Positions 13,758 through 57,730 of a stretch of 64,000 bases of DNA are shown piece after piece. Position 1 is the first letter of the stretch; the number at the start of each line of letters is the position of its first letter. The notes under the pieces were generated by a model. That model was not told the origin of the DNA. It ran no database searches and saw only the letters and a list, made by a program, of their open reading frames with translations. The stretch comes from a virus. Location of the stretch: positions 32,166 to 96,165 of the IMG/VR virus record IMGVR_UViG_3300046674_000373; one strand, written 5' to 3'. A program made the translations under genes and the position numbers.

Positions 13758-13773
13758 ATCCTACGATCACGAC
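13758..13773 (-). promoter_or_regulatory. late promoter motif (lysis cassette)
   Basis: GTCGTGAT-CG-TAGGAT; leadered. Confidence 0.65.
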
Positions 13774-13794
13774 GCGCCAGATCCGGAACAGCGG

Positions 13795-14553
13795 TCAGAA
13801 ACCAAGGGCGATATACAGCCCGGGCTGCGTCGCCACGGATGCACTGGTGTTGTAGGCAACGAACGCAGTTTTGTTGAACGTGTTGGCATTCACGCCAGAG
13901 ATTGCCACTTTCCCGACGTTGTCTGCCCCGGCAGTGGCAATGCAGGACAGGCACGCATTTGGGAAAGCCATCGCGTAAGTGACGGTTTGACTGCCATTCC
14001 CAGCAATAGACGGGACCTGACCCCACTGAAGGATCAGCCCACCCGGGAACATCTGGTAGCCGTTCGTGGTCAGCGAGCGCGCAAACTGATGCTCATAAGG
14101 AAGTGCGGCGGTGCCCAGCATGCACCAGGTGTTCGCTGCCACCTTGACGATGTTCGCGTGAGAGCCATTCGTGGCGGTTGCACTGGCTCCTGCCGCAAGA
14201 GTTTCGCCGCAAAAAATGGTGTCGCCAGCTGCCGGTGTGATCGTTGTAATGGCGCCAGACGAAAATGAGATCGGGAAGCTTGCCCCCAGCGGGAGGCCCG
14301 CTGTCGACGGGAGATTCAGCGTCGTCGCCAGGCAGACAGCGCGCTTGCCTGCGTCAGCTGCCGTGAGGCTACCAGTCGGCCCGGCCACTTGGACGTTGCC
14401 GGCCATGTTGCCAAGCGCGCGCTGAACGGCATCCATGGTGGCGAGGGATTTCGTGACGTCGAACTGCGGTGGCGTGATCGCTGCGATCACATTACCAGCG
14501 GTATCAGCCGTCAGCGCCGCGGCGAGGTTGGTCAGCTTGGTCGGTGCGTTCAT
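13795..14553 (-). CDS. tail fibre protein
   Basis: TPPQFD..KSLAT; C-terminal GYQMFPGGLILQWG fibre-tip motif. Confidence 0.75.
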   Translation of the reverse strand: MNAPTKLTNLAAALTADTAGNVIAAITPPQFDVTKSLATMDAVQRALGNMAGNVQVAGPTGSLTAADAGKRAVCLATTLNLPSTAGLPLGASFPISFSSGAITTITPAAGDTIFCGETLAAGASATATNGSHANIVKVAANTWCMLGTAALPYEHQFARSLTTNGYQMFPGGLILQWGQVPSIAGNGSQTVTYAMAFPNACLSCIATAGADNVGKVAISGVNANTFNKTAFVAYNTSASVATQPGLYIALGF

Positions 14554-14593
14554 ACATCCTTTCGTTGTCGCCGGGCCTGGGCCCGGGAGAGGC

Positions 14594-14788
14594 TTACTGC
14601 GCGGGGCTTGGTGGCGGCACCACGACCGGCGGCGGCGCCTTCCACTTGCCGTCCGCCAGGCGCCAGCCGTGCCGTACGTTGTCAGGGACCTCGACGAAGT
14701 CCTTTGCGATCGACGGGTGGAACGAGTTTTCCGGGTCGCTGGACACGTCCACAGCAACGTCGTTGATGATGCGTGCGAAGTTCTTCAT
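14594..14788 (-). CDS. small tail-fibre-associated protein
   Basis: FARII..VAVD...VPDNVRHGW; context. Confidence 0.55.
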   Translation of the reverse strand: MKNFARIINDVAVDVSSDPENSFHPSIAKDFVEVPDNVRHGWRLADGKWKAPPPVVVPPPSPAQ

Positions 14789-14792
14789 GGGG

Positions 14793-15710: not shown

Positions 15711-15722
15711 TCTTCGCCTCGA

Positions 15723-16040
15723 TTAGTTGACTGGGATGCCGTGTGCGCGCGCCGACACGTTGGCAACGTCAGCACGCACCCAGATTTTCTCGCCAGCGGA
15801 GATCGCCAGTCCGGTGTTCTCCATTACGCCGTTGGCCTCGACGCGCGAGTCATACTCGATGTAGTCGGCTGCCGCCGGGGCCACCCCGGCGCCGATCGCG
15901 ATGCGGATCTTGATCGGCGCCGCGTTGCGATTGCACAGCCGAACATTGACGACGAGGTCGAGCGTCTGCGCGTCCATCAGCAGTGTGTCGGTGGCCGCCG
16001 CCAGATCGGCGCTGCCCAATTTGCCAGTTCCAAGCGTCAT
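15723..16040 (-). CDS. hypothetical virion protein
   Basis: ORF coupled within tail-fibre operon. Confidence 0.6.
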   Translation of the reverse strand: MTLGTGKLGSADLAAATDTLLMDAQTLDLVVNVRLCNRNAAPIKIRIAIGAGVAPAAADYIEYDSRVEANGVMENTGLAISAGEKIWVRADVANVSARAHGIPVN

Positions 16041-16876
16041 ACAAACTGCCCCATAAAGTAGGATCGCCCCGCGACCAGTTTGCGCAGGTTGAGCGGTTCA
16101 TTCGGCTCGTTCTGGACGAAAAGCACGCGGATGCCGGCCGGCAGCGTGCGCGCCAGTTGAACCTGTGTCGCACTCAGGATGGCGAACTCGAACTCGCGCG
16201 AGCCGTCGACATAGACGGCGACACCATCCGTGGTGCACACGCTCAGCGTGAACGTGTCCTGGCCTGCAACCGCGGTCTGGATCTCCTTGATCACGTCGAC
16301 CGCGATGTTGAGCGATGCTGTCGGGTCGGCCCACTCGGTGTCGCCGTCCGCATTGGTCTTCTTGCGCAGCACCTGTCCGGTGGTCCCACCCGGGAATAGC
16401 AGCGCTGGCGTGATGGTCGACAGCACCCAGTCGCGCGTAGCGCCAACGATAGTCGCGTCGATCACCAGCGTGATGGCCGAAGCGTTCGATAGCTTCAGGC
16501 CGAACTTGATGACCAGGTCACGCGTTGAGCCGTCGGCCACCACCGGCTTGTAGGTCTCCGGGAAGTTGGCGACGGCGAACAGCACGCCATTGGCTGTGTA
16601 CAGTCCCACTTCGCGGATTGCCCAACCGCCCTGGTTCGGTGGAATCAGGAGCTCGGCATACAGCAGCGTCGGGTCGGTAGGGTCGGTGTCGAGACTCGAC
16701 AGGTTGTTCCGGTACACCTCACGCACGAGCGTCGTCTGCGCCGCTGATGGCGTAGTCGGGTTACCGCCACCGTCCCCAACCGCCATTGCCGTCAGCTGCA
16801 CCGGCACGCCGGTTTGCGTCGCGGCCGTGTACAGCACAAGTCCGGCTTGGGTCAGTTTTGCTAAGAAGGTCGCCAT
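16037..16876 (-). CDS. tail-collar fibre protein (DUF3751-like N-terminus)
   Basis: LTQAG..MAVGDGGG..GGWAIREVGL..NFPETYKP. Confidence 0.85.
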   Translation of the reverse strand: MATFLAKLTQAGLVLYTAATQTGVPVQLTAMAVGDGGGNPTTPSAAQTTLVREVYRNNLSSLDTDPTDPTLLYAELLIPPNQGGWAIREVGLYTANGVLFAVANFPETYKPVVADGSTRDLVIKFGLKLSNASAITLVIDATIVGATRDWVLSTITPALLFPGGTTGQVLRKKTNADGDTEWADPTASLNIAVDVIKEIQTAVAGQDTFTLSVCTTDGVAVYVDGSREFEFAILSATQVQLARTLPAGIRVLFVQNEPNEPLNLRKLVAGRSYFMGQFV

Positions 16877-16882
16877 GCCGTC

Positions 16883-16898
16883 ATTGTCGTGTCACGAC
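16883..16898 (-). promoter_or_regulatory. late promoter motif
   Basis: GTCGTGAC-AC-GACAAT-N6-ATG. Confidence 0.75.
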
Positions 16899-16993
16899 GA
16901 GCTCTGGCATGGCGTGGGGTGGCTGCTTGGTGAGCGCGTTGTCAGCCACGCATAGTCGGGCGCCGGGTTGGAAGCGATGGGGTTACAACAATC

Positions 16994-17025
16994 GTCATGT
17001 CAGCCTTTCATGCGCTGCGCGCCGG
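16994..17025. repeat. 32-bp direct repeat copy 1 (after tailspike 1)
   Basis: GTCATGTCAGCCTTTCATGCGCTGCGCGCCGG identical to 18998-19029. Confidence 0.9.
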
Positions 17026-17051
17026 GCGATGGGTTGGGGGATGATGGTCAT

Positions 17052-18884
17052 TTAGAAGCCGCTCTCCATGTACTCCAGCATCAGATGGATTTCGCTTGCG
17101 GTCCCCGCATTCCAGTTGACAGCCGTAGTGCCGACTTTCGGCGCGTAGAACGTGATCGTCCCGGCAGCTTCGAAGCGTGCCCAGCCAGTGCCGATCTGCC
17201 CCAGCGCCCCGCACCAGATGAATGGAATGAACACCGGCTGCACGGAGCTAAACGAGGTGTAATGCGTCGAAGGAGTGCGCGGCGGGGTGATGACGACGTT
17301 CGCAGTCGCGTCCGTGGTCTGGAACCGCACGCGGAAATGCCATCGCACCAATCCACCAAAGCGCATGAATTTTGACTTCATCTCGGTGATGGAGGCGACA
17401 TTGGTCATGTTCGAAGTGGTCAGCGCGTAGTTCTGCCACTTCAATCCCTGGTCGTAGGCGTACGCGGTTGTCGGCAGCGCGAGTCCGTTGGGCGTGTTCA
17501 GCCACATCACGCCCTGATCAACGCCAGCCAGATAGCCATTGTTTTGGTGCGTGTACGCGCTGTTTACTTGCGGCAGCACGGACGCATCGCTACCCCCTGC
17601 CATCACGAGCGGCGTGGCGGTCAGCAGCAGTTTGGAGCCGGTCATACCGCAGCCGAAAAACTCGCTGTAGGCGTTCGCGTTGTCGAGGTCGCGACCGCAG
17701 CCTTCCATCATGCATCCGAAGAACCGGTTGCTGTTGTTGGCAAGGCCGGTAACCGGATCGGACGCGCGAATCTTGATTGCGGTCGGGGTGGCGTTCGGTG
17801 TCGTGCCGTAATTGACCAGTTCGCAATGGACGGCGACGAACACATTGGTATCGCCAGCGTCGATCTGGACGCCGGTATTGGCGACCGTTTGCCCGATGCG
17901 CCAGTTCTCGAACTTGTTGCGGTTGACCAGCGAGCCGTTGGCATTCGTCGGAGAGCGAAGCCACAGACCGCGCACGCACTGATAAACCTTGTAGTTGCTC
18001 AGCGTGTTGTAGTAGCAACCTGACGCCAGTGAGCCGTTGTACGGGCCGCACTTGAGCGCAACGCCTTCGGTGCAGCCGACCACATACACGTTGTCGAAGC
18101 GGTTGTAACTCTGCGAAACCACGGTGGTGGTCTGCGTCGTGCTTTCCGGGTAAATCGCATGGCCGGTGACGTTAGCCTTGCCATTGCCGTAAATCGTGAA
18201 ATCGCGCCCACTGTTGTGGCTGTCCGCAGTGCGAAGCACGATCATGTTATCCGATCCGGCCAAGAACCGGCAGCAGTGACCAAGAATGTGGATGCGCCCG
18301 GTGGTTCCGTTGTCGGAAGTGTAGGGCTGAAGAATGCCATTCAAGGCACCATCAGCACCAGCGATGCCGTTTAAAAGGTAGCTTGCGCCGATAGTTCCTT
18401 CGACCACCCCGCCGCCAACAGTCTTTAGGTAAGCAATGGCTGCCGCCCACGCTGGGCTAGAATTGGTAACGCCAAGAGGATCAGCGCCGAACCAATCAGG
18501 CGACACATTGCCGTCATACTGCCGCTTCCAGCGCTTCTCATTGCTCGCCACAATCACAGTTCCGCCGTTGTCAGCGGTCGTGGTGTCGCTGTCATCCCGC
18601 ACAAACATGCCAGCAATGCCCGATGGCGCAGCCGTGCCAAGGTAGCCCGTCACATACACGCTTTTCAGCACGCCGCTGTACGCCCGTAAGGCAGCGTAGT
18701 CCGCTGCCTCGAACTTGAACCCGGCAATGTCGGCCACGTAGGCGGCCGAATCCGCCAGCATCTTCGCGAACGACCGCACCGGCCCGCCCTCAGTGGTCAC
18801 GGTGGTGTTCGCATCCCCGTGCACGACCTGGTGCGCGATGTCAGCGTCAGTTTCAAACTGCAGGACTTTGTCGGTCAGGGCCAT
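17052..18884 (-). CDS. tailspike / depolymerase-like receptor-binding protein 1
   Basis: N-terminus shared with RBP2; PDWFGADPLGVTNS followed by beta-helix-like sequence. Confidence 0.75.
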   Translation of the reverse strand: MALTDKVLQFETDADIAHQVVHGDANTTVTTEGGPVRSFAKMLADSAAYVADIAGFKFEAADYAALRAYSGVLKSVYVTGYLGTAAPSGIAGMFVRDDSDTTTADNGGTVIVASNEKRWKRQYDGNVSPDWFGADPLGVTNSSPAWAAAIAYLKTVGGGVVEGTIGASYLLNGIAGADGALNGILQPYTSDNGTTGRIHILGHCCRFLAGSDNMIVLRTADSHNSGRDFTIYGNGKANVTGHAIYPESTTQTTTVVSQSYNRFDNVYVVGCTEGVALKCGPYNGSLASGCYYNTLSNYKVYQCVRGLWLRSPTNANGSLVNRNKFENWRIGQTVANTGVQIDAGDTNVFVAVHCELVNYGTTPNATPTAIKIRASDPVTGLANNSNRFFGCMMEGCGRDLDNANAYSEFFGCGMTGSKLLLTATPLVMAGGSDASVLPQVNSAYTHQNNGYLAGVDQGVMWLNTPNGLALPTTAYAYDQGLKWQNYALTTSNMTNVASITEMKSKFMRFGGLVRWHFRVRFQTTDATANVVITPPRTPSTHYTSFSSVQPVFIPFIWCGALGQIGTGWARFEAAGTITFYAPKVGTTAVNWNAGTASEIHLMLEYMESGF

Positions 18885-18911
18885 GGCGTATTTGGTTGGT
18901 TGCGTTGGATC

Positions 18912-18927
18912 ATTGTTGATTCACGAC
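18912..18927 (-). promoter_or_regulatory. late promoter motif
   Basis: GTCGTGAA-TC-AACAAT; short leader. Confidence 0.6.
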
Positions 18928-19029: not shown

Positions 19030-19070
19030 TAGGGGCCAATGGTGGAGGTGATGATGGTCATGGGTGGCTC

Positions 19071-23188: not shown

Positions 23189-23802
23189 CACACCACCCTG
23201 TTCAGATCCAACGCCACGCCGGAAATCGGCACCACTTCCGCCTCGACCGCCAGGCGGTCGCCCTGCGTCGTCGCTGTCACGCGGCTGACGTCCTTGACCC
23301 GGCTCTCCGAGCGCAGCGCCTCGTCCACGTAGTCGGCTGCCACCAGCTCGCGTACCGGGCCCGACAGCGCCCCGATCAGGCGCCCCAGGTTCGCCCCATA
23401 GCGCGGGTGGAACATCAGCTCGCCGTGATCGGTCTCGATGCGGTGCGCCAGCGCCTGGCGCAAGTTGGCGCGGCCTGACACCAGCGCGAAGTCGCCGCCG
23501 GCGAACTGAAGTTGTCCGTCCTCGATCTGGCAGTCGGCTAGGAACACCTGGTCTGGATCGACGCCGGCATCGACCTCGGCGCTGGCGGCCGGTACCCGGA
23601 TCGTCGACCCGGTCAGCAGTACCCCGACACGCACCTCGGCCGGATTGTCGGTCAGGTACGGCGGGACCAGGTTGTTCATCCAGCTCAGCTGGGACCACTT
23701 GGCCGCATCGCCGAGCTCGCGCAGCGCGACCGCGCGCAGGGTATCTCCGTACAGGGTCTGGACGAACCGGAAGCCCGTAATCGGGCGGGTAAAGTCGGTC
23801 AT
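23188..23802 (-). CDS. gp25-like baseplate protein with LysM-like N-terminus
   Basis: GDTLRAVALRELGDAAKW; NLRQAL..HPRYG. Confidence 0.75.
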   Translation of the reverse strand: MTDFTRPITGFRFVQTLYGDTLRAVALRELGDAAKWSQLSWMNNLVPPYLTDNPAEVRVGVLLTGSTIRVPAASAEVDAGVDPDQVFLADCQIEDGQLQFAGGDFALVSGRANLRQALAHRIETDHGELMFHPRYGANLGRLIGALSGPVRELVAADYVDEALRSESRVKDVSRVTATTQGDRLAVEAEVVPISGVALDLNRVV

Positions 23803-24947
23803 CAGACGGCCACCCCGTTGTTGACCTCGGACAGGGTCGCACCGATCACTGGTAGCGGTAGCGGTGCCAGCACGACGTCCTGGTGCGAGAGCTTGTACAT
23901 CGCCGCGCTGGCCACCGGTGACACGCCGACACCGCCTCCGGAGGATGGGCTGATCGCATAGAACGGGTTCTGGCCTGCATAGACCGATGGCGGGCTGCCG
24001 CCGCTGGTAGACGAGCAGTTTGACGCGCCATACAGCGGGTTGTAGTCCTCGTAAGTCGGCGTCTTCTTCAAGGCGTTGTGCAGCACGCAAAACGCATTGC
24101 TATACGCCCCCGCCACCTGCATCAGCTCAGCCTTCACCTGGGACGGGATACTGGTGACGGCCGCCATCGTGCGAAACACGTTCATGCCGGTTTGCGCGAG
24201 GTTGCGCGCTACCAGTACAAATGGGTCCGCCAGTGACAGCCCATTCTGGATGGTGCTGTGCACCGAGGTGAACACGGAGCTCGACAGCCGCATGAAGTCG
24301 GTCACCGGCCCCAGGATGGTCTTGTCCACGAAGTTGCGGGCTTTGTTGATAGCGGAGTTGATCTCGCCCAGCGAGCTAAACAGGCTGTCGAGCCCCAGTC
24401 CCTGTGCGCCGCCGAACAGCCCTCCGAGGCCACCAAACAGGCCAGAAATGGCACCAGGGACGCCGGCCTTCCCCACCGAGATGAAGGAAATCCGGTAGCT
24501 GGCAAGCAGCGGGCGGCTTTTGTTGCGCCGAATCTCGAACGCCAGCGGAACGATCACGCTCGAGTAGCTATTCAGGGCATCGACGAACCGAAGTTTGACG
24601 TCGTTCGGGTCGTCACCGCGGTCAACGGCCTCCTGGCGCAGCTTGTGCCACTGGTGGTAGGTTTTCTCGCGCATTTCGATCAGGCGATCGCCGCCGTCTT
24701 GACCGTCCGGTCCGGTGCGCCAACCGAGCGTGCCGGAGAGCGTCGTGGACTCCAGACCCTCACCGAACGAGTCGATCCAGGCGCCGCCGAGCGTCTGGTT
24801 GACGGACGTGCGCGACGGGTGGTTCCGGGACATTTCCTCCGGGCGGATGAACAGGGTCACCTCGTCCGCATCCCCACCCCGGGCGTCGAGGATGAAGCTG
24901 ATCGGTCGGTCTTCTGCCTTCTGACTTTTGGCGGGACTGAGGTTCAT
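23802..24947 (-). CDS. baseplate/tube-initiator protein
   Basis: IRPEEM..QTLGGAWIDSFGEG; context. Confidence 0.6.
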   Translation of the reverse strand: MNLSPAKSQKAEDRPISFILDARGGDADEVTLFIRPEEMSRNHPSRTSVNQTLGGAWIDSFGEGLESTTLSGTLGWRTGPDGQDGGDRLIEMREKTYHQWHKLRQEAVDRGDDPNDVKLRFVDALNSYSSVIVPLAFEIRRNKSRPLLASYRISFISVGKAGVPGAISGLFGGLGGLFGGAQGLGLDSLFSSLGEINSAINKARNFVDKTILGPVTDFMRLSSSVFTSVHSTIQNGLSLADPFVLVARNLAQTGMNVFRTMAAVTSIPSQVKAELMQVAGAYSNAFCVLHNALKKTPTYEDYNPLYGASNCSSTSGGSPPSVYAGQNPFYAISPSSGGGVGVSPVASAAMYKLSHQDVVLAPLPLPVIGATLSEVNNGVAV

Positions 24948-24953
24948 GCCCGG

Positions 24954-24969
24954 ATCGTAACGTCACGAC
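24954..24969 (-). promoter_or_regulatory. late promoter motif
   Basis: GTCGTGAC-GT-TACGAT-N6-ATG. Confidence 0.75.
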
Positions 24970-30875: not shown

Positions 30876-30891
30876 AGCATGAGGTCACGAC
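30876..30891 (-). promoter_or_regulatory. late promoter motif
   Basis: GTCGTGAC-CT-CATGCT; leadered, directly after terminator. Confidence 0.7.
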
Positions 30892-34130: not shown

Positions 34131-34146
34131 ATGATCCCGTCACGAC
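34131..34146 (-). promoter_or_regulatory. late promoter motif
   Basis: GTCGTGAC-GG-GATCAT-N7-ATG. Confidence 0.7.
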
Positions 34147-34156: not shown

Positions 34157-34172
34157 GGCGTGACATTAGAGT
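34157..34172 (+). promoter_or_regulatory. late promoter motif
   Basis: GGCGTGAC-AT-TAGAGT-N6-ATG. Confidence 0.7.
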
Positions 34173-40437: not shown

Positions 40438-40453
40438 ATGGTGGCGTCACGAC
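40438..40453 (-). promoter_or_regulatory. late promoter motif
   Basis: GTCGTGAC-GC-CACCAT-N9-ATG. Confidence 0.75.
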
Positions 40454-43900: not shown

Positions 43901-45469
43901 CTCCACGGCCGTCTTGCCGAGCGAGACCTGCAGCGGCCCGGCGCCGGGCGCTTTCATGGCCAGCACCAGCGCGGCATTGGCCTCCATCTCGCCCATGGCT
44001 TGGCCGAGGATCCGCTGGGCGTCGCCGATGGCGGCGCGCCGGCGCGCGTTCAGTTCCTGCGCCACTGCGAGGTCCGCACCGTTCCGCGCCTCGGTAGATA
44101 GCTCGATCGCGCTGGCGGCCTCCTGCAGGTCGCGCGCCTTTTTCAGCGCCTCGGTGGTGGTGGCGGTGTAGTGGTTGACGTGCCAGTCCTGGATGCCGGC
44201 CGCAACATGCTCGACCTCCTCAGGCGCGAGATCGGCGTGCACGCGCCGCGCCAGCACCTGCGCCGCGCCAGCGATGCCGAGCACGTCAACCACCGAGCGG
44301 TCTACCAGCGCCTCGCCGCCGACGGCCAGCGCCAGCGCGTTGATGCTGTTGTAGGCGCCCACGCCGATATGGCCGCCCAGGGTCTCCGTCGGGCTGCCGC
44401 CGGCGATCTTGCCGACCTCGGACAGGAAGGCTGACGTCTGGACGGTGCGCAGGTCGTTCGCGAGGTCCTCGGCGACGTCTCCGCCGTCGGACACCTCGAG
44501 CACGAACGCCTTCGGCTCGGCCGCGCCGCGGTCCACATCGGCATGCGCGGCGCGCGCCAGGCGCTCGATCTCGGCCAGGCGCTTGCCTTCCTTGACCAGC
44601 TCCAGCGCATCCTTGGCCGACAGCAGCGAGGCATCGGCGCTGGGCGCGGCCGGCTCCTTGATGCCGGCCAGCTCCTGCTTGATCAGATTGCCCGCGTCGC
44701 CGCGCGCGAACGCGGCCTGGCGCTGCTCTTCCGTCAGGCCAGCCAGCTTGACTTGCTGAGCCTCGGCGGCCAGCACATCCTGGGACAGGCCCGCATCGGT
44801 GGCGCGGCCCTTGTAATCGGCCTGGAAACCCAGTCCGGCACCAGGTGGCTTGATGGGGTCCAGGTCCTGCACGGACAGGTGCTCGGGGGCGTCCGAGAAC
44901 AGCGGCAGCTCTCCTACGCCCGCATCGGCGCGCGCCGCCGCGTCGTTGACCAACTTCTCGCGGCTTTGCTGGATCACTTCCTTGGCGCGCTTGAGCAACT
45001 GGCGGTGGTGGCGGTCCTTGACCTTGGCAAGCGCCTTCTCGGACAGGTGCGCGTAGTCCTGCTCGGGGAAGGTGAGGTCCGATTCATCCCAGCCGGCCTT
45101 CTTGGCGACCGCCTCGATGACGCTGCGTTCGGCGGCGCGGCGCTGGTTCTGGATATCCTTGCGCGCGTCCTGCTTGGCGCCGTGCACGCCGGAGGCCTTG
45201 TCGGCGGCGATCTGTTCCTTCTTCTTGGCGCGCTGCTCGGCCGCTTTGCCCTTGGCCTCCTCCTTGTAGTCGGCGTGCGATTTCACACCGCGCAGACGTA
45301 GATGGTTCAGCGAACCACCGGCGCCGCCGATCACCACAGCCGACCCATCCTGCTGCGGCTGGATCAGCACCGGCTGGCCCTTGCCGATTCCGGCTGGATG
45401 TACGGTAATCCAGTGGGAACCCTCTGGTACGGAAGACGCTTTTAGGAGTAGGCGTGGCTCGATCGTCAT
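40937..45469 (-). CDS. 1510-aa protein with C-terminal SNF2/SF2 helicase (putative virion cargo, DarB-like role)
   Basis: AGAGSGKT, FIDEAH, SGDPVKND, SDAGAVGMNLQ, QRNARIHRLGQ; located in head module. Confidence 0.8.
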   Translation of the reverse strand: MTIEPRLLLKASSVPEGSHWITVHPAGIGKGQPVLIQPQQDGSAVVIGGAGGSLNHLRLRGVKSHADYKEEAKGKAAEQRAKKKEQIAADKASGVHGAKQDARKDIQNQRRAAERSVIEAVAKKAGWDESDLTFPEQDYAHLSEKALAKVKDRHHRQLLKRAKEVIQQSREKLVNDAAARADAGVGELPLFSDAPEHLSVQDLDPIKPPGAGLGFQADYKGRATDAGLSQDVLAAEAQQVKLAGLTEEQRQAAFARGDAGNLIKQELAGIKEPAAPSADASLLSAKDALELVKEGKRLAEIERLARAAHADVDRGAAEPKAFVLEVSDGGDVAEDLANDLRTVQTSAFLSEVGKIAGGSPTETLGGHIGVGAYNSINALALAVGGEALVDRSVVDVLGIAGAAQVLARRVHADLAPEEVEHVAAGIQDWHVNHYTATTTEALKKARDLQEAASAIELSTEARNGADLAVAQELNARRRAAIGDAQRILGQAMGEMEANAALVLAMKAPGAGPLQVSLGKTAVEQAIQQVRAIGLKTGDYSLEKVGGDTFLTVTPAGMERLAKPVNREDVQQVRRNLAIIRGEHDEDGWLPLGVANRPDLVMNVKPGVAERLAQPFAPGPDLQAALRTYIGARTADGDAPADILADVQSADFFQRVGAGRAEEYRQALDAVAPLKDADGNQQRADALGDTFEKYADEHVAQLGGERTTLNRQKFKVDQKSVDALHRALAETPEGTAAYKQIGELTPKDQAALREHFYRHIAKESPDAGKMRAELEQLNGAEPEKETTDMFGDTVPNPEWKDWRATRDNLAEKLSSSSLTWSKYLKTMGSNEKAYEAVQDVIRSKMAATFVDAHNKLNPDAPIKLGKRVIRNNLDHLDAVDPDARDSRMAKDKALIDGLRNRSGGKYAAGGIADKIGAAKEQQAAFDQAQMGFFSSEEAPAATAGGQPAGLAPDERHTLGHAAERQIAGMMEHVGANFKPGQPTKLWGVSMSGKYAAQQRAIKLLAANKRMALAAGAGSGKTNMMLGAHAHLSGLGTVKRSIMMVPSIVQGQFNGEALRLLEAGKFKAHIQPGASQAERIAAYKDPDTHICVMTHQSFRDDMVHLGSKQAGVDEAAMVSKVAAMSTTERRDWVASVMAAEGINFDASFIDEAHDTLNRAGKENSSLSNVLEAVGHHTPYHVYASGDPVKNDPSEIHSMLQKLDPERYEDRAAFMRRYGADTIASKQALQREMARYVFPTSITPDVAVSRKQEKVSLSPGQTQALGELDKHLARARLAQRAGKVDVEAARAISPNSFAGVPESDHEKVAAALQKSIGILKSSAVNRIINSHPDNAKVARAVQMVADRPGKQGVIFARNRDSVEQYKAAMETAGKRVVVITGSDSAKEKDKKRRMFNPESGEAKADILIASDAGAVGMNLQSGQFLIQHDISQTAKTHSQRNARIHRLGQKQGVELIDLVGDHAEERRSRDRLEKKYALKDLMASPLDGIDDSGVAGAINARRVEAQSGQGAMF

Positions 45470-45475: not shown

Positions 45476-45491
45476 ATGATGAAGTCACGAC
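45476..45491 (-). promoter_or_regulatory. late promoter motif
   Basis: GTCGTGAC-TT-CATCAT-N6-ATG. Confidence 0.75.
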
Positions 45492-45537: not shown

Positions 45538-46404
45538 GTGGCAATCATGACCAAACCCATTTTCGAACTCGATTCGCCCAATTCATTCATCGGTACCGCC
45601 CACGTTCAAGTCCAGACGGTCGCAGATATCACCGGAGAGAATGAAATCCTTCTCCAAAATGAACATGCATTCGCGGTGTCCCAAGGTACCGGCGCTACAG
45701 TCCCAACGTCATTGAATGAGGGCCGTGCCCACGATATCGAATGGGCGCCGAAGACCATCGGTTACCTGCCTCCGGCATTCAGGGTTCGCAGCCTGTACCG
45801 TCAACCCATTCGCGCCACGTTCGTGCGCATTTCGGACGCAGTCTTTCGGGCAGCTGCGCTTGGTGTCGTTGACTTCGAGCAGGTTGACTCGCAGTTCCTG
45901 CATGGCATTACGGACCCAGTCGCGTTCAACCTGATGGAAGCCCTTTCATGGGCTGCGAGCGGCGGCAGTGACACATCCGAAATGATGCTCGAGTCGATTG
46001 GCATTGCTCTGTCCGTACGGATGATGCAAAAGCTCGGCGCCGTCATGCTGGAGAAAGTCGCGCCGTACTCCAGCGGCCTGCCTATTAACACGATGCGAAG
46101 GATCACCGAGTACATCGACGACAATATCGCTAATACGATTCGGCTCAAGGAGCTGGCCGGGATCGCTGACCTCAGCCCGTTTCATTTTGCAAGGGCGTTT
46201 CACAAAACGGCAAAAATCACTCCGGCCCGCTACATTGTGCTGCGCCGCGTCGAGTGCGCGAAACAGCGAATGCGAATTCCGTACGCGCAACTAGCGATCA
46301 TCGCATACGAGTGCGGCTTCGCCAGCCAGAGCCATTTCACGACCGCATTCAAGCGGGTCACCGGCATGACCCCGGCCGCCTACCGGGGACAGTTCATGAC
46401 TTGA
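45538..46404 (+). CDS. AraC-family transcriptional regulator (moron)
   Basis: LKELAGIADLSPFHFARAF...IAYECGFASQSHFTTAFKRVTGMTPAAYR. Confidence 0.9.
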   Translation: MAIMTKPIFELDSPNSFIGTAHVQVQTVADITGENEILLQNEHAFAVSQGTGATVPTSLNEGRAHDIEWAPKTIGYLPPAFRVRSLYRQPIRATFVRISDAVFRAAALGVVDFEQVDSQFLHGITDPVAFNLMEALSWAASGGSDTSEMMLESIGIALSVRMMQKLGAVMLEKVAPYSSGLPINTMRRITEYIDDNIANTIRLKELAGIADLSPFHFARAFHKTAKITPARYIVLRRVECAKQRMRIPYAQLAIIAYECGFASQSHFTTAFKRVTGMTPAAYRGQFMT

Positions 46405-47545: not shown

Positions 47546-47561
47546 AGGGTAGGGTCACGAC
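47546..47561 (-). promoter_or_regulatory. late promoter motif
   Basis: GTCGTGAC-CC-TACCCT-N6-ATG. Confidence 0.75.
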
Positions 47562-48704: not shown

Positions 48705-49037
48705 TTAGGCTCCAGGTGCATTGCGGGCCCGTTTCCCTTGCGTGATGGCTTGCGGCTCGAGTTGCAGCTGCTCGGCGCGCGCCTCTGGCGGGATGCGCAC
48801 CAGGCGACGGCGCCCAGCGTCGTCGGCCACGATCAGCCCATCCTCGCCCTCTTCTTGAACCTTGTAGGTCTGCGGCGCGCGCTTCTTGTGCCCCGCGATG
48901 TGCCCCCACTTGAGCTTGTGGCGCGCGCCTTCCCCGTCCTCGACGTGGCAACCGTGCTTGCCGGTGCACAGTACCCGGCCACTTTTGGGCTCGCCTTTGT
49001 GGTGGAAGAAGACCTCGTCGCCCTTGTTCGCGCTCAC
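48705..49037 (-). CDS. hypothetical protein
   Basis: GTGA-coupled to portal. Confidence 0.6.
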   Translation of the reverse strand: MSANKGDEVFFHHKGEPKSGRVLCTGKHGCHVEDGEGARHKLKWGHIAGHKKRAPQTYKVQEEGEDGLIVADDAGRRRLVRIPPEARAEQLQLEPQAITQGKRARNAPGA

Positions 49038-50752
49038 GGCTCGACCCTGAATACCGGAAGCCCGAAGGCCTTCTGGATTTCCGGCCCGTTGTCGTCTTCG
49101 CCTGGTGCTGCCGGCCCGCCGCCAAACGGCGGCTTCTTCTCGGCCTGGCCGCCCGGCTTGGTGTCGCCATTACCGAACGCCCCCGATCCACCCGGGCCGT
49201 CCTGCGCATCCGGGTCGCCGTAATCCTCGCCGGCCGCCTGCTGCTCGGCCATCCAGGCCTGCATCAGGTTTTGGTTGAGCGGCGCGTCGCCCCAGGCTTC
49301 CTTGATCTCCTCGCGGCCCTGATCCTTGCGCGCCTCGTTCACGGTCAAGATCACCTGGTCCTTGGCCCAGCGCTGCTCCGGCGTCTCATCGTCGATGCCG
49401 GTCCAGCGGAACACGTACTTGTCGCCGAACTCGGCCACGACATAGTCCGAGAACAGGTCCTCGTAGTGCGACAGGAGCGGCCGCAGGCCCTTGTCCTTCG
49501 AATTGATCAGCTTTTCCTCGGTGTCCGAGCCGGACAGCGAGCTGGTGCCGTTGGTGAAGCTCTCGAAATTGATCTCGTCCGGCGCGATACCGTAGATGGC
49601 GCAAATGATCGACGTGAGGAACGTCATCCATTTGGTGAACATCATCTCGTTGACGTCGACGCCGAAATTCTCGAACGCTGCCTTCGACTCCTGGTTCTTC
49701 GAGACCATCACCGGCAGGTTCCAGGCATTGCCGGCGCCCTTGACCATGGCGTTCCAGTACCGGCGGAAGGCCGACAGGTCGTTCGCGTCGTAGTCGCCGG
49801 TCAGGTGCAGCAGACCCTTGGGGATCGCGTTCTTGTCGAAGTAGCTCGTGTTGTAGGTGAAGGCGTTCAGGAAGCCGGTCACCACCTTGATCAGCAGCTC
49901 GGTCTCCGACATGCCGTAGCCGCCGACAAGGATATCGGTGCGCGGGTTGCGCGGCACGTAGATCAGGTCGTCGTAGCCATACGCCGCGCGCACGGAACCA
50001 TCGACCACCTGGACGGCGAAGATCTCGTCGTCGCCGCGGTAGCCGATCTCGTTCACCAGGCGGATCGTGGCGCCGTCGACCGCGTACAGGCCGTCCATGC
50101 CCAGGCTGCGATCACGCTTCCATTCGGTCTCGATCGGCGCGCTGTCCATGATCAGGCTGTCGCGCACCAGCTTGGACATGAAGCCCGAGAAGTTGTCGCG
50201 CTTGAGCCGCGCGCGCTGGCGCGGGTTCTTCTCCCAGCCGCAGTGCGTGAAGAAGTCCTGCAGCAGCGCAATCGACTTCTGCTCGTCCTTCCCCATCTTA
50301 GCGTTCGGGTCTTTGAGCCGGACCTGAAAGCCCGCGCCCTTGCCTCCGTCCGGCACCCGGCAGAACCGCTTAACCTGGCGCTGGCGCGTGAGGATCACGC
50401 TCGAAAGCACCGGCGTCTGGTCAACCATGTTGCGCATCATGTCGAACGACATGCCAGACCAGCGCTCGCGCCACTCTCCCATCGAGTTGCCGTACGAGTC
50501 GTTCACCCAGACCGACTGCATGCCGGGCTCGCGGTCTTTCGCGCGCGGGCTGGGGAAGGGGATCAGCTTTGCACCAGTGAGGGCCTTGTTGAACTCCTGT
50601 TCGTCGGCCTGCCGCTGCATGAACTCCACCAGCGGCATCATGTCCTTGACGGTCTGGGGTAGAGCGGCCTGCTGCGCCTCGGACATGGCGGCGCGGCGCT
50701 CTTCGGCGGGAGCGCCCGAGTCAAACGCAGTGGTGAGCGCGGAGGTAGTCAT
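49034..50752 (-). CDS. portal protein
   Basis: YAVDGATIR, GYGMSETE, IPKGLL, KDKGLRPLL, LTVNEAR. Confidence 0.9.
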   Translation of the reverse strand: MTTSALTTAFDSGAPAEERRAAMSEAQQAALPQTVKDMMPLVEFMQRQADEQEFNKALTGAKLIPFPSPRAKDREPGMQSVWVNDSYGNSMGEWRERWSGMSFDMMRNMVDQTPVLSSVILTRQRQVKRFCRVPDGGKGAGFQVRLKDPNAKMGKDEQKSIALLQDFFTHCGWEKNPRQRARLKRDNFSGFMSKLVRDSLIMDSAPIETEWKRDRSLGMDGLYAVDGATIRLVNEIGYRGDDEIFAVQVVDGSVRAAYGYDDLIYVPRNPRTDILVGGYGMSETELLIKVVTGFLNAFTYNTSYFDKNAIPKGLLHLTGDYDANDLSAFRRYWNAMVKGAGNAWNLPVMVSKNQESKAAFENFGVDVNEMMFTKWMTFLTSIICAIYGIAPDEINFESFTNGTSSLSGSDTEEKLINSKDKGLRPLLSHYEDLFSDYVVAEFGDKYVFRWTGIDDETPEQRWAKDQVILTVNEARKDQGREEIKEAWGDAPLNQNLMQAWMAEQQAAGEDYGDPDAQDGPGGSGAFGNGDTKPGGQAEKKPPFGGGPAAPGEDDNGPEIQKAFGLPVFRVEP

Positions 50753-50758: not shown

Positions 50759-50774
50759 ATGGTGGCGTCACGAC
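50759..50774 (-). promoter_or_regulatory. late promoter motif
   Basis: GTCGTGAC-GC-CACCAT-N6-ATG. Confidence 0.75.
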
Positions 50775-50861
50775 GAGTAAGCAACAGACAGCAAAAATAT
50801 TTAGTTCATGCATCAAATTTGATGTATTATTTCAGTAAGGCCACAGAACAAGAGGAAAAGT

Positions 50862-53211: not shown

Positions 53212-53223
53212 ACAGGGAGGAGT

Positions 53224-54700: not shown

Positions 54701-54904
54701 CCGCCAAAGCCGCCCCGGACCCGGCCACCCTAACGGTAGCCCTCCACACCGGCCCCTGCCGTCGCCTCCGCAGCGAGATCGTCACCGTGGACCGGCGCCA
54801 GCGAAAGCGGGGCCCGGGCGGCCAATTCCAACCGAAATCCGATTCAAAAAAGTAGCTGAAATTAAACCTGTTCTGCTGTACGTCACCCCAAAATGGAGCG
54901 AACC

Positions 54905-55075
54905 ATGAACAATCTTGTCAGCAAACTGTTTTTCGGCGCCGGCCTGCTCGCGTACCTGGCCTTCTTCGCCGACCGGGCCCAGGCCTTCGGTATCCACGAC
55001 TACAGCACGGACGTGATGGTGTTGCCGCTTCTGGGCCTGCTCGGCCACTTCGCGTTCGAGCGGAAGACGGCCTAA
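54905..55075 (+). CDS. small 2-TM membrane protein
   Basis: SD GGAG; hydrophobic. Confidence 0.45.
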   Translation: MNNLVSKLFFGAGLLAYLAFFADRAQAFGIHDYSTDVMVLPLLGLLGHFAFERKTA

Positions 55076-57708
55076 ACCACCCTCAGGAAGCCGATACAGC
55101 CGGGCGTCTCTTCCTTCACCCGCATGAACGTCTCGCCGCAGATCCCACTCTCCGGGTCGCGGTTCTGGCATTGGCCGCAGGTGTCGGCCAGCGCGGTAGC
55201 GGCCGCCACCAGCTTGTCGCTCATGCCCGGCAATGACTTCACGTGCTCGTTCACCTCGACGGCCTGGCGCTCCTCGCCGCCGGGCAGGATGAACATATTG
55301 GTGCCGTGCGCGCGCGCCCAAGCGACGTCGCACAGCATGTTGGCGTAGCTGGTGTGCGGGTCGATGCCCACCTTGACGACGCGCCGCTTGAACTTCTTCT
55401 CCTCCTCGTCCTTCTCGGCCACCAGCGCGGTGCGCGTGAAGTGGAAGAAGGCGTACTCCTTGCAGACGGCGGCCATGCGACGCTTGCCCTTCTCCAGCAC
55501 CTCCTGCACCAGGCCGTCCGGATCCGGGAACAGGCACATGCGCTTCTGGAAACGCGCCATCGACACCTGCATGCACTTGTACTGGTCGAGTCGGACGGTG
55601 AAGCGATCGCGCAGCTCCTCGTCGGTGCGGCGCTCGGACGTGGAGAGCGCCGGCGCGTCGCCCCAGGCGAGCATGTCGCCGTCCATGTTGCCGTAGCCGG
55701 CCAGGAACACCTTGCCGTCGTGGCGCCGCGCGAAGCTCTTGGCGCTATCGTAGTTCGGCAGGGTCTCGACCACGCAACACTGCACGCCGTAGGCCGCCAT
55801 CAGCTCGTCGCAGCGGTCCCAGGGCGAGGCATCCGGGTCGTCCTTGGTCGGCGCGCGGAAGATGTACTCGATGTGCACCACGGCCTGGTGGCCATCCGGC
55901 ATGCGCTCCTTGATGACGGCGACGATGAACGAACCCATCTGGTCCAGTCCCATGAACGTGCCACGGGCGTTGCGCTTCCAGGTCAGGCCGGCGGCCATGC
56001 CCTCGGCGGCGCACTGGTTCAGCATCTCCAGGTTGACCGGGACCTGCGACGGGTCGGTGTAGGGCTTTCCGAGGGTCCTGTTGTGGAATGACTTCATATC
56101 ATCGGCTTCGTGATAGCCGGTGATGATCTTCCTGGGCGTGATGGTCGGGGACAGGAACTGTGGGAAGTGTACGGATCGTACAGACGCGTCAGGTACCTTT
56201 GCTATCCATTCCCCTTGCTGGGGATCGTCGATCCAGCCTTCGCACTCGTGGCATCGGTAACGATACTCGCCAACCATGCCGGCCTCACGCTCGCGCTCGT
56301 TCAGCCGAGGTGCGTCAGGGTCATATGCGATGCAATTTGGGAAATGCTCGTCGAGCACCTGGTGGGTGCCGCAGTGCGGACAAAGGGTATGGAACTGATG
56401 CTGGGTCCCCTTTTTGTACCACCAGTGGATATCCGAATCCGGCCAGTTTGCCGTTGATCCCATTAGCGTGTAACGAATCGATGATGCTGACATACGCTCG
56501 CGGGTCTTCTCCATGTCCGCGATTGCCATCTCTTGGACCTCGTCGAACGAGACAACGTCCATCGGATTCGATTCGGTCGAAACTTTACCCGTCGTCCAGA
56601 GGAAGTGGAATCGCGACTCTCCCATGGTTCGAACGAGAACATTACCCTCGCCGCCGCGACGGCTGCTGGATGATGTATCTGTCATCAATCGGTGCACTTC
56701 CGGTATGGTTCGAACGATAGGCATAAAGCGTATCGAGGACTTCGTCGTTGCAGCGCCCACAGCCGGCATAAACATGCCAATTTTGGCTGGCGAGAAGCGA
56801 AGTCCAAGATAAATCATCGCCAACATTTCGAAGACCGAAAAGCCAACTTGAGTGCATTTCATAATTACGTCGATCCGGTCGAAGGCATCCTGTACCGTCG
56901 ATGGGATAAGCTCGTAAATGAAACGCATTGCAGGTCGGTCAGACAAAGTGAAAGCCTTGCCGTCGACCTTCATTCCGGATTCTTCCAACCGCTCACACCA
57001 CCGGATGAACGTTTCTCCGGGCAGCACAATTTTTTGTTCTGCGGTCAGCTCAATGGCCACCTCGAGAAACTCGCCGCCAAAGCGCTGCCTGAATTCAGGC
57101 TCGGTTACGCGGTCAGCTTCGTCAGCCGTTTCCTCCGGAAGAAACGGGTTGGAAAAGGAATCGAAGTGGAACCGCGCCCACTCCGGGTCGCGCTCCGCGG
57201 CGCGCCAGAGCCGGTAGAAGTCGTTCTTCTTCCCGTACGCGTCCGACAAAATCCAGGCCTGCCCCTTGTACTGCTGGAGTATGGGCCGGATCAGGTCCTC
57301 CCACTTGTCGAGCAAGTTCTCGACCTGGCGCGCGCCGTCGATCACCACCAGCCCGAACTGGTCCATGACGTCGTGGTGGTCGGAAAGCGCGTAGAAATCG
57401 ATCAAGACGCCCGATACGAGCTCGATACGGCGCGAGCTGTGGCGGCGCTTGACCAGGTCGCCAAGCGCGTTCACGACAGCGCGGCGCACCTCCTTGAGGG
57501 ATTCGGCATCAGGTGAGAACCACGCGACCGGGCGCTTGCTGTTCAGCGTGCTCAAGGCTCCGCGCTCGGACGCCAGGAGCGCCTCAATACCAAGGGTCCG
57601 CTTCCCCCACTTTTCACCAGCGACAACGATCGTGAAGCGCTTTGCACCAGATAGACACGCCTGCTGGGCTGGATGAAGACGGGGAAGTTTTACCGTGATT
57701 TTTGCCAT
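55072..57708 (-). CDS. terL: terminase large subunit (GpA-type) with extra N-terminal degenerate terminase ATPase domain
   Basis: GpA-type KCTQVGFS, VSFDEV, CPHC..CHEC, GLDQ; N-terminal LHPAQ..AGEKWGKR..VVIDGA. Confidence 0.85.
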   Translation of the reverse strand: MAKITVKLPRLHPAQQACLSGAKRFTIVVAGEKWGKRTLGIEALLASERGALSTLNSKRPVAWFSPDAESLKEVRRAVVNALGDLVKRRHSSRRIELVSGVLIDFYALSDHHDVMDQFGLVVIDGARQVENLLDKWEDLIRPILQQYKGQAWILSDAYGKKNDFYRLWRAAERDPEWARFHFDSFSNPFLPEETADEADRVTEPEFRQRFGGEFLEVAIELTAEQKIVLPGETFIRWCERLEESGMKVDGKAFTLSDRPAMRFIYELIPSTVQDAFDRIDVIMKCTQVGFSVFEMLAMIYLGLRFSPAKIGMFMPAVGAATTKSSIRFMPIVRTIPEVHRLMTDTSSSSRRGGEGNVLVRTMGESRFHFLWTTGKVSTESNPMDVVSFDEVQEMAIADMEKTRERMSASSIRYTLMGSTANWPDSDIHWWYKKGTQHQFHTLCPHCGTHQVLDEHFPNCIAYDPDAPRLNEREREAGMVGEYRYRCHECEGWIDDPQQGEWIAKVPDASVRSVHFPQFLSPTITPRKIITGYHEADDMKSFHNRTLGKPYTDPSQVPVNLEMLNQCAAEGMAAGLTWKRNARGTFMGLDQMGSFIVAVIKERMPDGHQAVVHIEYIFRAPTKDDPDASPWDRCDELMAAYGVQCCVVETLPNYDSAKSFARRHDGKVFLAGYGNMDGDMLAWGDAPALSTSERRTDEELRDRFTVRLDQYKCMQVSMARFQKRMCLFPDPDGLVQEVLEKGKRRMAAVCKEYAFFHFTRTALVAEKDEEEKKFKRRVVKVGIDPHTSYANMLCDVAWARAHGTNMFILPGGEERQAVEVNEHVKSLPGMSDKLVAAATALADTCGQCQNRDPESGICGETFMRVKEETPGCIGFLRVV

Positions 57709-57714
57709 CCGGTG

Positions 57715-57730
57715 AGGATGGCGTCACGAT
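57715..57730 (-). promoter_or_regulatory. late promoter motif
   Basis: ATCGTGAC-GC-CATCCT-N6-ATG. Confidence 0.7.

Follow-up and report, generated by a model that had tools for sequence, protein, structure and literature searches.

The question raised by this locus is whether a short sequence repeated in front of virion, lysis and packaging genes acts as a promoter, and if so what reads it and where the resulting transcripts begin. The window is the whole stretch of DNA that was analysed, 64,000 nucleotides in length, and belongs to a phage genome of 96 kb. The repeated sequence is a 16-mer, GTCGTGAC-N3-A-N3-T, in which an octamer is followed by two bases and a hexamer carrying A at its second and T at its sixth position. 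Exact matches number eight in the window, all on the minus strand, against 0.10 expected from dinucleotide shuffles, and 16 matches with at most one mismatch are found versus 3.4 expected. The bare octamer also occurs eight times, in promoter positions in all eight cases, where shuffles give 3.2. Of the 16 looser matches, 12 lie on the coding strand upstream of virion, lysis or packaging genes. The original prediction had claimed 12 copies, and all of them exist, eight exact and four with one mismatch. Eleven are on the minus strand and one is on the plus strand, each just 5' of a late transcription unit, the word late being taken from the products that the genes encode. The copies, together with one doubtful match, are as follows.

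13758..13773, minus strand: copy with one mismatch, GTCGTGAT-cg-TAGGAT; TTG start at 13706, 51 nt downstream, with AAGGG before the TTG; lysis cassette with holin (13126-13392) and SLT-domain endolysin (12542-13369)
16883..16898, minus strand: exact copy, hexamer GACAAT; ATG at 16876, 6 nt away; tail-collar fibre gene (16037-16876) first
18912..18927, minus strand: copy with one mismatch, GTCGTGAA-tc-AACAAT; ATG at 18884, 27 nt downstream; product of 610 aa with no assigned function
24954..24969, minus strand: exact copy, hexamer TACGAT; ATG at 24947, 6 nt away; tail-tube initiator or baseplate gene (23802-24947)
30876..30891, minus strand: exact copy, hexamer CATGCT, directly after a terminator-like hairpin with a T run; ATG at 30839, 36 nt away
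34131..34146, minus strand: exact copy, hexamer GATCAT; second in-frame ATG at 34123, 7 nt away; 276-aa gene
34157..34172, plus strand: copy with one mismatch, GGCGTGAC-at-TAGAGT, the sole plus-strand member; ATG at 34179, 6 nt away; 281-aa gene pointing away from its neighbour
40438..40453, minus strand: exact copy, hexamer CACCAT; ATG at 40428, 9 nt away; first gene homologous to the prohead protease gene annotated in phage Dolphis
45476..45491, minus strand: exact copy, hexamer CATCAT; ATG at 45469, 6 nt away; 1510-aa SNF2/helicase gene
47546..47561, minus strand: exact copy, hexamer TACCCT; ATG at 47539, 6 nt away; conserved head-module gene, 381 aa
50759..50774, minus strand: exact copy, hexamer CACCAT; ATG at 50752, 6 nt away; portal gene (49034-50752)
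57715..57730, minus strand: copy with one mismatch, ATCGTGAC-gc-CATCCT; ATG at 57708, 6 nt away; large terminase gene (55072-57708)
503..518, minus strand: doubtful copy, GTTGTGAC-ac-CACTCT; ATG only 2 nt away; HNH endonuclease ORF

The match at 503 is probably not a member of the family, since its ATG lies too close and the HNH endonuclease ORF is absent from relatives. Three one-mismatch matches on the plus strand are also doubtful, two because they are intragenic (17688 and 32213) and one because it overlaps the 50759 copy on the other strand (50748). The plus-strand genes for replication, recombination and integrase (2468-11933) have no copy in front of them, as had been noticed before. 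The count of 12 holds for the window but not for the genome, because the 32 kb outside the window contain four more copies, at genome positions 819, 1412, 6218 and 8819. Those at 819 and 8819 have an ATG 6 nt downstream, that at 1412 has a leader containing AGGAGA, and that at 6218 ends its hexamer in G and not T. At three divergent junctions the motif is the sole conserved promoter candidate: at 50759, at 45476, where the entire gap between the SNF2 gene and a divergent AraC-family gene (45538-46404, plus strand) is 68 nt, and at 34131/34157, where two copies form a back-to-back divergent pair that is also present in relatives.

To describe the architecture of the motif we built a logo from 138 distinct copies that were chosen by the exact octamer, without selection on the hexamer. 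A at position 12 (91%) and T at position 16 (88%) are strongly kept, and position 15 is A or C in 88%. The hexamer thus has the A at position 2 and the T at position 6 of a canonical sigma-70 -10 element. There is no sign of a -35 element, as each of the 30 positions 5' of the octamer carries at most 0.13 bit in this logo, and a consensus scan of 20 kb of the late region predicted no sigma-70-type -35/-10 promoter on the minus strand. An extended -10 promoter, with TGn at -15/-14, does not fit either: the TG of the octamer sits four bases 5' of the hexamer, at -18/-17, and the -15/-14 positions hold an invariant C and then a variable base (G in 57%). In our reading the 16-base signal very probably functions as a late promoter that is specific to the phage and lacks a -35 box, often starting its mRNA at the ATG. 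This promoter and leaderless interpretation, proposed earlier, gains support from position, strand, conservation, the A/T signature and a bimodal spacing to the start codon.

The spacing was measured for 148 distinct copies across the clade. The distance from hexamer to start is 6 nt in 61 copies and 7 nt in 16, only 6 of the 148 fall between 8 and 18 nt, and the remainder are spread broadly over 19-80 nt. Such a bimodal distribution is predicted by a fixed start point with either no leader or a leader long enough for a Shine-Dalgarno sequence. When the start is close (5-7 nt) it is ATG in 76 of 77 cases. For the window copies, with the start taken as the ATG that opens the longest ORF, the distances were as originally described: exactly 6 nt in seven copies, with single copies at 7 and at 9 nt. 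A search for the motif followed by N6-ATG returns 8 matches (at most one mismatch) versus 0.06 expected. A Shine-Dalgarno-like core was seen at none of the 9 leaderless-class starts versus 44 of 91 other genes (random 15-mers, 14%), and clear Shine-Dalgarno sequences precede the genes for capsid, tube, sheath and scaffold. Two of the three distant copies in the window were said to have one, and they do (AAGGA at 30876, AAGGG at 13758), while the copy at 18912 has a CA-rich leader without a clear one. Among leader-bearing copies as a class, a strong core is found in only about one third, a figure that depends on crude start assignments. The close ATGs appear to be real starts, because the independent GenBank annotation of Dolphis places the starts of gp5, gp6, gp8, gp14 and gp117 on them, and because portal N-termini are alike (mostly M-[ST]-D) across relatives with or without a leader.

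From the 6-7 nt spacing, about half of the copies (77/148) should give leaderless transcripts, and the copy at 40438, with its ATG 9 nt on, is predicted to give a nearly leaderless one. How large the leaderless fraction is differs by lineage, a point that is new here. Leaderless mRNAs are rare in Proteobacteria and have been detected only in a minority of genomes (PMC3160421). This implies that efficient translation of such messages is not guaranteed. We found no paper on transcription of the cultured relatives.

Conservation extends the pattern well beyond this genome. The enrichment check suggested with the original prediction gave, besides the excess in the window, 3-15 copies in each of 22 further records scanned whole, almost all on one strand, versus 0 in the reversed control (0-1 over all relatives scanned). 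The exception among scanned relatives is Morganella phage Mecenats66, with 2 matches versus 1.2 expected and no enrichment, which retains the virion module. Of the 57 relatives fetched, with GC contents from 41 to 68%, nearly all have the motif upstream of the portal gene. The genome of Microvirga lupini has 14 matches, 9 of them inside a prophage of about 63 kb, a concentration indicating that the motif is not a host regulon signal. The clade infects Alpha-, Beta- and Gammaproteobacteria and includes Dolphis, Jeremy, Touem01, PHB04, ST4, fHe-Yen8-01, phiT5282EW and ECML-606-1, as well as Microvirga and Caballeronia prophages and dozens of metagenomic genomes. Judged by these comparisons, the motif is a hallmark of this large clade of ~90-kb phages of Proteobacteria, which is also new here.

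We propose the following mechanism. The last six bases would serve as a minimal -10 box, in which strong conservation is confined to the A at position 2 and the T at position 6, and host RNA polymerase would read these as A(-11) and T(-7), the bases flipped by sigma-70-type region 2. The invariant octamer, at about -22 to -15 and 3 bp 5' of the extended -10 TG site, would substitute for -35 recognition and would be read by something that the phage supplies, most likely a specificity factor that it encodes and that acts on the polymerase of the host. The start point that we infer lies 7 nt past the T of the hexamer, which would make the A of the ATG the +1 base in roughly every second copy. Leaderless first cistrons would then give the portal, terminase, SNF2 protein, tail fibre, baseplate protein and giant ADP-ribosyltransferase, and a nearly leaderless mRNA would give the prohead protease. 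The scaffold-like and major capsid genes downstream of the protease gene each have their own Shine-Dalgarno sequence, and the genes for abundant products further down the units (capsid, scaffold, sheath, tube) keep such sequences.

No sigma factor is recognisable in the window, as stated earlier, and a search of the whole genome likewise detected neither a sigma factor gene nor one for an RNA polymerase. A six-frame genome search found no match at E up to 1 to sigma-70 region 2 (PF04542) or to the Ogr_Delta zinc finger of the P2 late activators (PF04606). For sigma-70 region 4 (PF08281) the genome search gave only sub-threshold helix-turn-helix matches, in the HNH endonuclease ORF and a TerS-like protein, and Pfam matched no activator family in the 40 early-region proteins tested. 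The only candidates that we found, and candidates only, are a pair of unannotated zinc proteins encoded outside the window, the sole early-region hallmark of the clade. One is a 181-aa eight-cysteine protein (genome 16878-17423) whose family comprises about 900 clusters at 50% identity without annotation or known fold. The other, a zinc-ribbon protein of about 129 aa (genome 16426-16815), has C-x2-C, 18 residues and C-x2-C, with only generic zinc-ribbon hints.

Among the alternatives, the one that fares best leaves the promoter in place and assigns its recognition not to the zinc pair but to a sigma-like or sigma-appropriating protein, small and evolving too fast to be found by sequence searches, and we give it a little less than an even chance. 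Most early-region proteins match no Pfam or PHROG family, and small proteins escape detection in the tblastn comparison of relatives. Mecenats66 has both zinc proteins without the motif, and the pair are putative readers with weak fold matches, the 181-aa protein scoring below Z 3 and the zinc ribbon Z 4.7. Against this, the zinc pair and SSB are the only non-structural components shared by all relatives examined, even the most distant ones. In a more specific scheme built on the pair, a new two-protein zinc module encoded by the first two genes of an early operon would switch on late transcription by reading GTCGTGAC at -22 to -15 as a substitute for -35 recognition. In many members the module would be tethered to the host beta clamp by the clamp-binding-like C-terminal motif Q-x-x-L-[LWF], which half of the 181-aa homologues carry, so that late transcription would be coupled to replication as in T4 but with unrelated proteins, and leaderless first cistrons would keep the yield of low-copy virion proteins down in hosts that are poor at translating such messages. 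As a complete scheme this is speculative and rather unlikely.

It is less probable still that the host sigma-70 holoenzyme alone reads the 16-mer as an unusual promoter without a -35 box, with no octamer-binding phage factor and the phage merely tilting the balance, for example through an anti-region-4 protein or ADP-ribosylation of RNA polymerase. The hexamer shows the A/T signature of the housekeeping sigma, whose conservation across the alpha-, beta- and gammaproteobacterial hosts could explain the invariance of the octamer; the phage encodes a large ADP-ribosyltransferase, and the failure to detect a sigma factor or classical activator family would also agree. However, the hexamers are very weak (CACCAT and CATCCT, for instance), the TG of the octamer is 3 bp away from the extended -10 position, and Microvirga host DNA outside the prophage has 5 motif copies in about 4.8 Mb, a chance level indicating that hosts do not use the motif as a promoter element. 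The notion that the motif works in RNA, as a processing site or a translational operator in the Shine-Dalgarno place of transcripts starting further upstream, could draw on the location of half of the copies at -22 to -7 from the AUG, the usual ribosome-binding region, and on the endoribonuclease toxins of some relatives (MazF is annotated in Dolphis), but it is highly improbable, given that copies 19-80 nt from the start retain the same 16-mer with its A/T pair and so form a unit independent of AUG distance, that a promoter is needed at several copies, which come after terminator-like hairpins or separate divergent genes, that the octamer is unable to form a stable hairpin, and that 6-7 nt is the distance from a -10 box to +1.

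Considered as a phage-specific late promoter, the signal has several partial counterparts. P1, a temperate myovirus of Proteobacteria of about 93 kb, has 11 dispersed late promoters, in which a -10 hexamer is joined by a short element that replaces the -35, is centred at about -22 and is read by the phage-encoded activator Lpa with host SspA (PMC10695390, PMC3152322). Dispersed late promoters with a short conserved element in the stead of the -35 place P1 among the closest analogues, and its LPpac contains GTGAC. The P1 box is nevertheless a 9-bp inverted repeat (AAGTTACTT or ATGTGACTT) at another distance from the -10 box, and we rejected a P1-type AAGTnACTT repeat for the asymmetric octamer studied here, LPhot and LPpac differing from it when read directly. 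These two promoters lie 22 and 35 nt 5' of annotated start codons, neither with a start codon at +1, and the 181-aa family profile matched P1 Lpa with an hhalign probability of only 0.07%.

Thermus phage Lalka27a, the other closest analogue, offers a published precedent: each of its 16 late promoters combines a special -10 box with one conserved base at -25 and has no -35; its transcripts are mostly leaderless, starting 6 nt past the -10 box, and its authors infer a phage factor that alters host RNA polymerase specificity (bioRxiv 10.64898/2026.04.20.719267). That report cites phiYS40 for the same trait. Similar to the promoters described here, those of Lalka27a lack a -35 and follow a leaderless logic, and its portal is 35% identical to the portal in the window, but its consensus is different (TAGGGT plus C at -25), and the Thermus host phylum uses leaderless mRNAs routinely, according to PMC12340547. 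The Lalka27a and phiYS40 phages yielded no homologue of the 181-aa zinc protein. The T4 late promoter, as outlined in PMC3152322, has no -35 and a single short element near -10, and uses host core RNA polymerase with small phage proteins. The lack of a -35 and the clamp-binding-like C-terminus recall T4; its element is TATAAATA, however, and the genome analysed here has no sigma region 2 match. T4 gp33 and gp55 bind the gp45 sliding clamp via their C-termini, and the late messages of T4 carry leaders that include Shine-Dalgarno sequences. Among phage messages in proteobacterial hosts, the classical leaderless case is the lambda cI mRNA from PRM, with its AUG at the 5' end. It serves one low-level regulatory gene, versus about half of the late transcription units here.

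If these predictions are correct, a single compact promoter of about 16 bp drives the late genes throughout a large clade of ~90-kb temperate myoviruses that has hardly been studied. That promoter would be portable, without a -35 box, and a potential orthogonal promoter part once its factor is identified, and the reader may be a protein of a new kind. Systematically leaderless portal, terminase and other first cistrons would be unusual for Proteobacteria and would provide a natural system for studying leaderless mRNA translation in such hosts and its bearing on phage protein ratios. The motif also marks transcription units and true start codons. Several of the start codons marked in this way are mis-annotated in the deposited relatives.

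The pattern GTCGTGAC-N3-A-N3-T matches the window exactly eight times, always on the minus strand, where chance would give 0.10 matches, and allowing one mismatch adds the sites at 13758, 18912, 34157(+) and 57715. The motif observation is confirmed, since all 12 sites of the original prediction are recovered as eight exact and four one-mismatch matches, each with a same-strand ORF directly downstream. Even the bare octamer is confined to these promoter positions, where all eight of its window copies are found; shuffles give 3.2. Four further copies are present outside the window. The downstream genes, named by Pfam and by synteny with the Pseudomonas phage Dolphis, include the following.

Sites and associated features (window coordinates unless marked genome)
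13758: holin and SLT-domain endolysin downstream
16883: tail fibre downstream
24954: tail-tube initiator or baseplate protein downstream
40438: prohead protease homologue, then scaffold-like and capsid genes
45476: 1510-aa SNF2/helicase protein downstream
50759: portal downstream
57715: large terminase downstream
Genome 819: ATG 6 nt on; drives a giant WGR/ADP-ribosyltransferase gene whose 3' part is window 61056-64000
Genome 8819: ATG 6 nt on; drives a DUF3307 membrane protein, a TerS-like helix-turn-helix protein and two DNA methylases
Genome 1412: leader containing AGGAGA
Genome 6218: G, not T, as the last hexamer base

Site 503 was rejected as a member of the motif, as were two intragenic sites, 17688(+) and 32213(+).

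The window spans bases 32166-96165 of an IMG/VR virus record of 96,165 bp, whose 127-bp terminal repeat looks like an assembly overlap; GC is about 64%. The portal and other virion genes group the phage with the Pseudomonas phages Dolphis, Jeremy and Touem01, Bordetella phage PHB04, Aeromonas phage ST4, Yersinia phage fHe-Yen8-01, Enterobacter phage phiT5282EW and Escherichia phage ECML-606-1, with Morganella phage Mecenats66 more distant; related prophages are found in Microvirga lupini (Alphaproteobacteria) and Caballeronia pedi (Betaproteobacteria). Using the portal gene we collected 57 IMG/VR relatives (50-87% identity, 41-68% GC), and nearly all of them have the 16-mer formed by octamer, two bases and hexamer ahead of this gene. 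Scans of whole records gave 8-11 exact copies in each of five relatives, all on one strand, 8 copies in Dolphis and 3-15 in each of 16 further contigs, with a reversed control of 0 in every case. Copies share the orientation of the portal gene in 122 cases and oppose it in 7. For the Microvirga genome, 9 of the 14 matches fall inside the prophage of about 63 kb, on one strand only, and the 5 matches in the remaining 4.8 Mb are at chance level, indicating a phage signal rather than a host regulon. The motif is not enriched in Mecenats66 (2 matches, 1.2 expected).

To describe the promoter we built a logo from 138 distinct exact-octamer copies, without selection on the hexamer. The second hexamer base is A in 91% of copies (A12 of the 16-mer), the sixth is T in 88% (T16), and position 15 is A or C in 88%. 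Positions upstream of the octamer carry essentially no information in these copies, which implies that there is no -35 element. An ECF-type reading, in which the octamer's CGT would serve as -10 box, was rejected because nothing is conserved at the corresponding -35 position. The A/T signature points to region 2 of a sigma-70-type factor of the host polymerase as what would read the hexamer.

The original prediction also gave the spacing to the start codon, and this geometry holds. Seven sites have an ORF-opening ATG exactly 6 nt after the hexamer; at 34131 the distance is 7 nt and at 40438 it is 9 nt. Leaders of 27, 36 and 51 nt are found at the remaining three, with AAGGA or AAGGG before the start in two. 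When we searched for the motif followed by N6-ATG with at most one mismatch, we obtained 8 matches against 0.06 expected, seven of them listed sites and the eighth, the intragenic 17688(+), probably a chance occurrence. In 148 distinct copies from across the clade, we located the first start codon after the hexamer that opens an ORF of 60 aa or more. It is 6 nt away in 61 copies and 7 nt away in 16; in only six is the distance 8-18 nt, and the remainder are spread broadly over 19-80 nt. Among the 77 starts located 5-7 nt from the hexamer, 76 are ATG. A hexamer at -12 to -7 followed by six intervening bases places +1 on the A of the ATG, and the nearly empty gap at 8-18 nt is as expected for a fixed start point, with either no leader or one long enough for a Shine-Dalgarno sequence.

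That the close ATGs are the true starts is indicated by the GenBank annotation of Dolphis, which independently starts gp5 (portal), gp6, gp8 (protease), gp14 and gp117 (ADP-ribosyltransferase) on them, and by the portal N-termini, which stay similar (mostly M-[ST]-D) whether or not a relative has a leader. None of the nine leaderless-class starts in the genome has a Shine-Dalgarno-like core, compared with 44 of the 91 other genes and 14% of random 15-mers. Clear Shine-Dalgarno sequences are found on the abundant downstream cistrons (capsid, scaffold-like protein, sheath and tube), and the units seem to be designed so that a low-copy protein is made from a leaderless first cistron and the bulk proteins from later cistrons with Shine-Dalgarno sequences. 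The leaderless share varies with lineage, from 60/99 at a GC content of 60% or more to 14/32 at 50-60% and 3/17 below 50%. The E. coli phage ECML-606-1 has Shine-Dalgarno leaders at nearly all copies, and in the Microvirga prophage the copies before terminase, portal and protease are of the leaderless type. In bacterial genomes, leaderless genes were detected in 2 of 117 Alphaproteobacteria, 9 of 71 Betaproteobacteria and 15 of 239 Gammaproteobacteria (PMC3160421). The reading of the motif as a promoter of often leaderless messages is supported as a computational prediction, with putative start points and a presumed late timing. Two Dolphis copies, at 14320 and 23688, each have an ATG 6 nt on and suggest that gp15 and gp25 begin 162 and 60 nt further upstream than annotated; for gp15 this extension is backed by the homologue at 34123 in the window.

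What reads the octamer is a separate question. At -22 to -15 the octamer is not an extended -10 element, and the hosts do not use it; together with the A/T signature, this makes a phage-supplied factor the most economical reading. The original prediction had noted no obvious sigma factor in the window, in agreement with our six-frame searches for Sigma70_r2, Sigma70_r4_2, Ogr_Delta and zf-dskA_traR, which gave nothing above threshold. Pfam likewise returned no sigma factor, activator or other regulator among 40 early-region proteins. The AraC-family gene within the late region was rejected as the reader because it is absent from three of the five relatives compared. We checked every called protein against five relatives, four of them complete and one half-complete with low GC; apart from structural proteins, only the SSB and a 181-aa zinc protein are shared by all five. 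The latter is encoded next to a second zinc protein.

Genome 16878-17423, minus strand: 181-aa zinc protein, about 15 kb before the window
Genome 16426-16815, minus strand: zinc-ribbon protein of about 129 aa, the ORF next after the 181-aa gene

The 181-aa gene is the first after an AT-rich intergenic region of 300 bp, and the gene for the ribbon protein stands behind it in 37 of 37 relatives searched. The 181-aa protein has eight invariant cysteines and an almost invariant segment, RLIGGN-CV-CKNREYE. Its family comprises 894 clusters at 50% identity (E up to 0.001), and its distribution among GenBank phages coincides exactly with the nine cultured members of the clade. Neither a Pfam nor a PHROG family matches it, the PDB gave no match by sequence (best E 0.99), fold searches gave Foldseek E above 1 and VIA Z of at most 2.8, and its protein atlas matches are 'hypothetical' clusters only. 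A word-index search gave no fused form longer than 317 aa; a full profile search found homologues up to 474 aa, with only sub-threshold helix-turn-helix hints. The homologues end in Q-x-x-L-[LWF...] in 42 of 88 cases (for example RQGVLL, RQARLW and PQLSLW), against 0.14% of shuffled sequences, an ending that we take to resemble the beta-clamp-binding motif QL[SD]LF.

The protein of about 129 aa has C-x2-C, 18 residues and C-x2-C, plus three further invariant cysteines. Its ribbon is weakly similar to the RNA-polymerase-bound zinc ribbons of Elf1, TFIIS and Rpb9. The best fold match, the Elf1 zinc ribbon (Z 4.7, rmsd 2.9 Å, 53 residues), is below the meaningful level and counts little because the zinc ribbon is a common small fold; the next matches, TFIIS, the topoisomerase I C-terminal domain and Rpb9, are also below that level. 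We consider both zinc proteins candidate readers only. All long contigs encoding the 181-aa protein carry the motif, and the complete ones all have the portal of the clade too, so that the link of this protein to the motif is inseparable from shared descent; the one discordant case is Mecenats66, which keeps both zinc proteins with the motif unenriched. The pair is present, unannotated, in every clade member examined, and the Dolphis homologue of the 181-aa protein is largely unannotated.

The closest analogue in Proteobacteria is P1, with 11 dispersed late promoters in which a -10 box is combined with a 9-bp inverted repeat, centred at -22, to which Lpa binds; host SspA acts as co-activator (PMC10695390, PMC3152322). 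The P1 box, spacing and activator are all unlike those of the present phage. The Thermus phage Lalka27a, whose portal is 35% identical to the present one, has 16 late promoters that lack a -35 box and combine a special -10 box with one conserved base at position -25; its transcripts are mostly leaderless, and its authors inferred a phage factor (bioRxiv 10.64898/2026.04.20.719267). In its host phylum leaderless messages are routine (PMC12340547). A look-up of sequencing runs with 10 kb of the late region listed none. Searches for the octamer string returned unrelated primer matches only, papers naming the cultured relatives have no word on promoters, and a search on nanopore mapping of transcription starts in phages combined with 'leaderless' gave nothing relevant; we found no earlier description of the present promoter system in the searchable literature.

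Several other features were noted in the window.

50812-50823: perfect 12-bp palindrome ATCAAATTTGAT, upstream of the octamer of the portal promoter by about 38 nt
3-500, minus strand: HNH endonuclease ORF inserted between the helicase and SSB genes
45538-46404, plus strand: AraC-family regulator gene (HTH_18, HTH_AraC), on the opposite strand within the late region, divergent from the SNF2 gene
40937-45469, minus strand: 1510-aa protein with an SNF2/helicase C-terminal half, in the head module, behind a late promoter

Variants of the palindrome, such as TCAAAAATG and TCAAATATGAT, are found at the equivalent position in many relatives, two of which, from the Burkholderiaceae, also have a variant directly abutting another promoter copy; the palindrome could be a binding site of a dimeric protein. 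In some relatives, Dolphis (28081-28125) and ECML-606-1 (record positions 7559 and 71476), a GC-rich hairpin with a T run follows the promoter and ends right at the ATG; the window has no such case. These hairpins could act as attenuators or 5' stabilisers. Many late genes of Mecenats66 have similar hairpins, with a GGGGG Shine-Dalgarno in the 3' arm. The HNH ORF is lacking in relatives and is thus probably a homing endonuclease, and the AraC-family gene, present in only some relatives, is probably a moron. The 1510-aa SNF2/helicase protein is found in some relatives and missing from others, and it may be packaged or injected.
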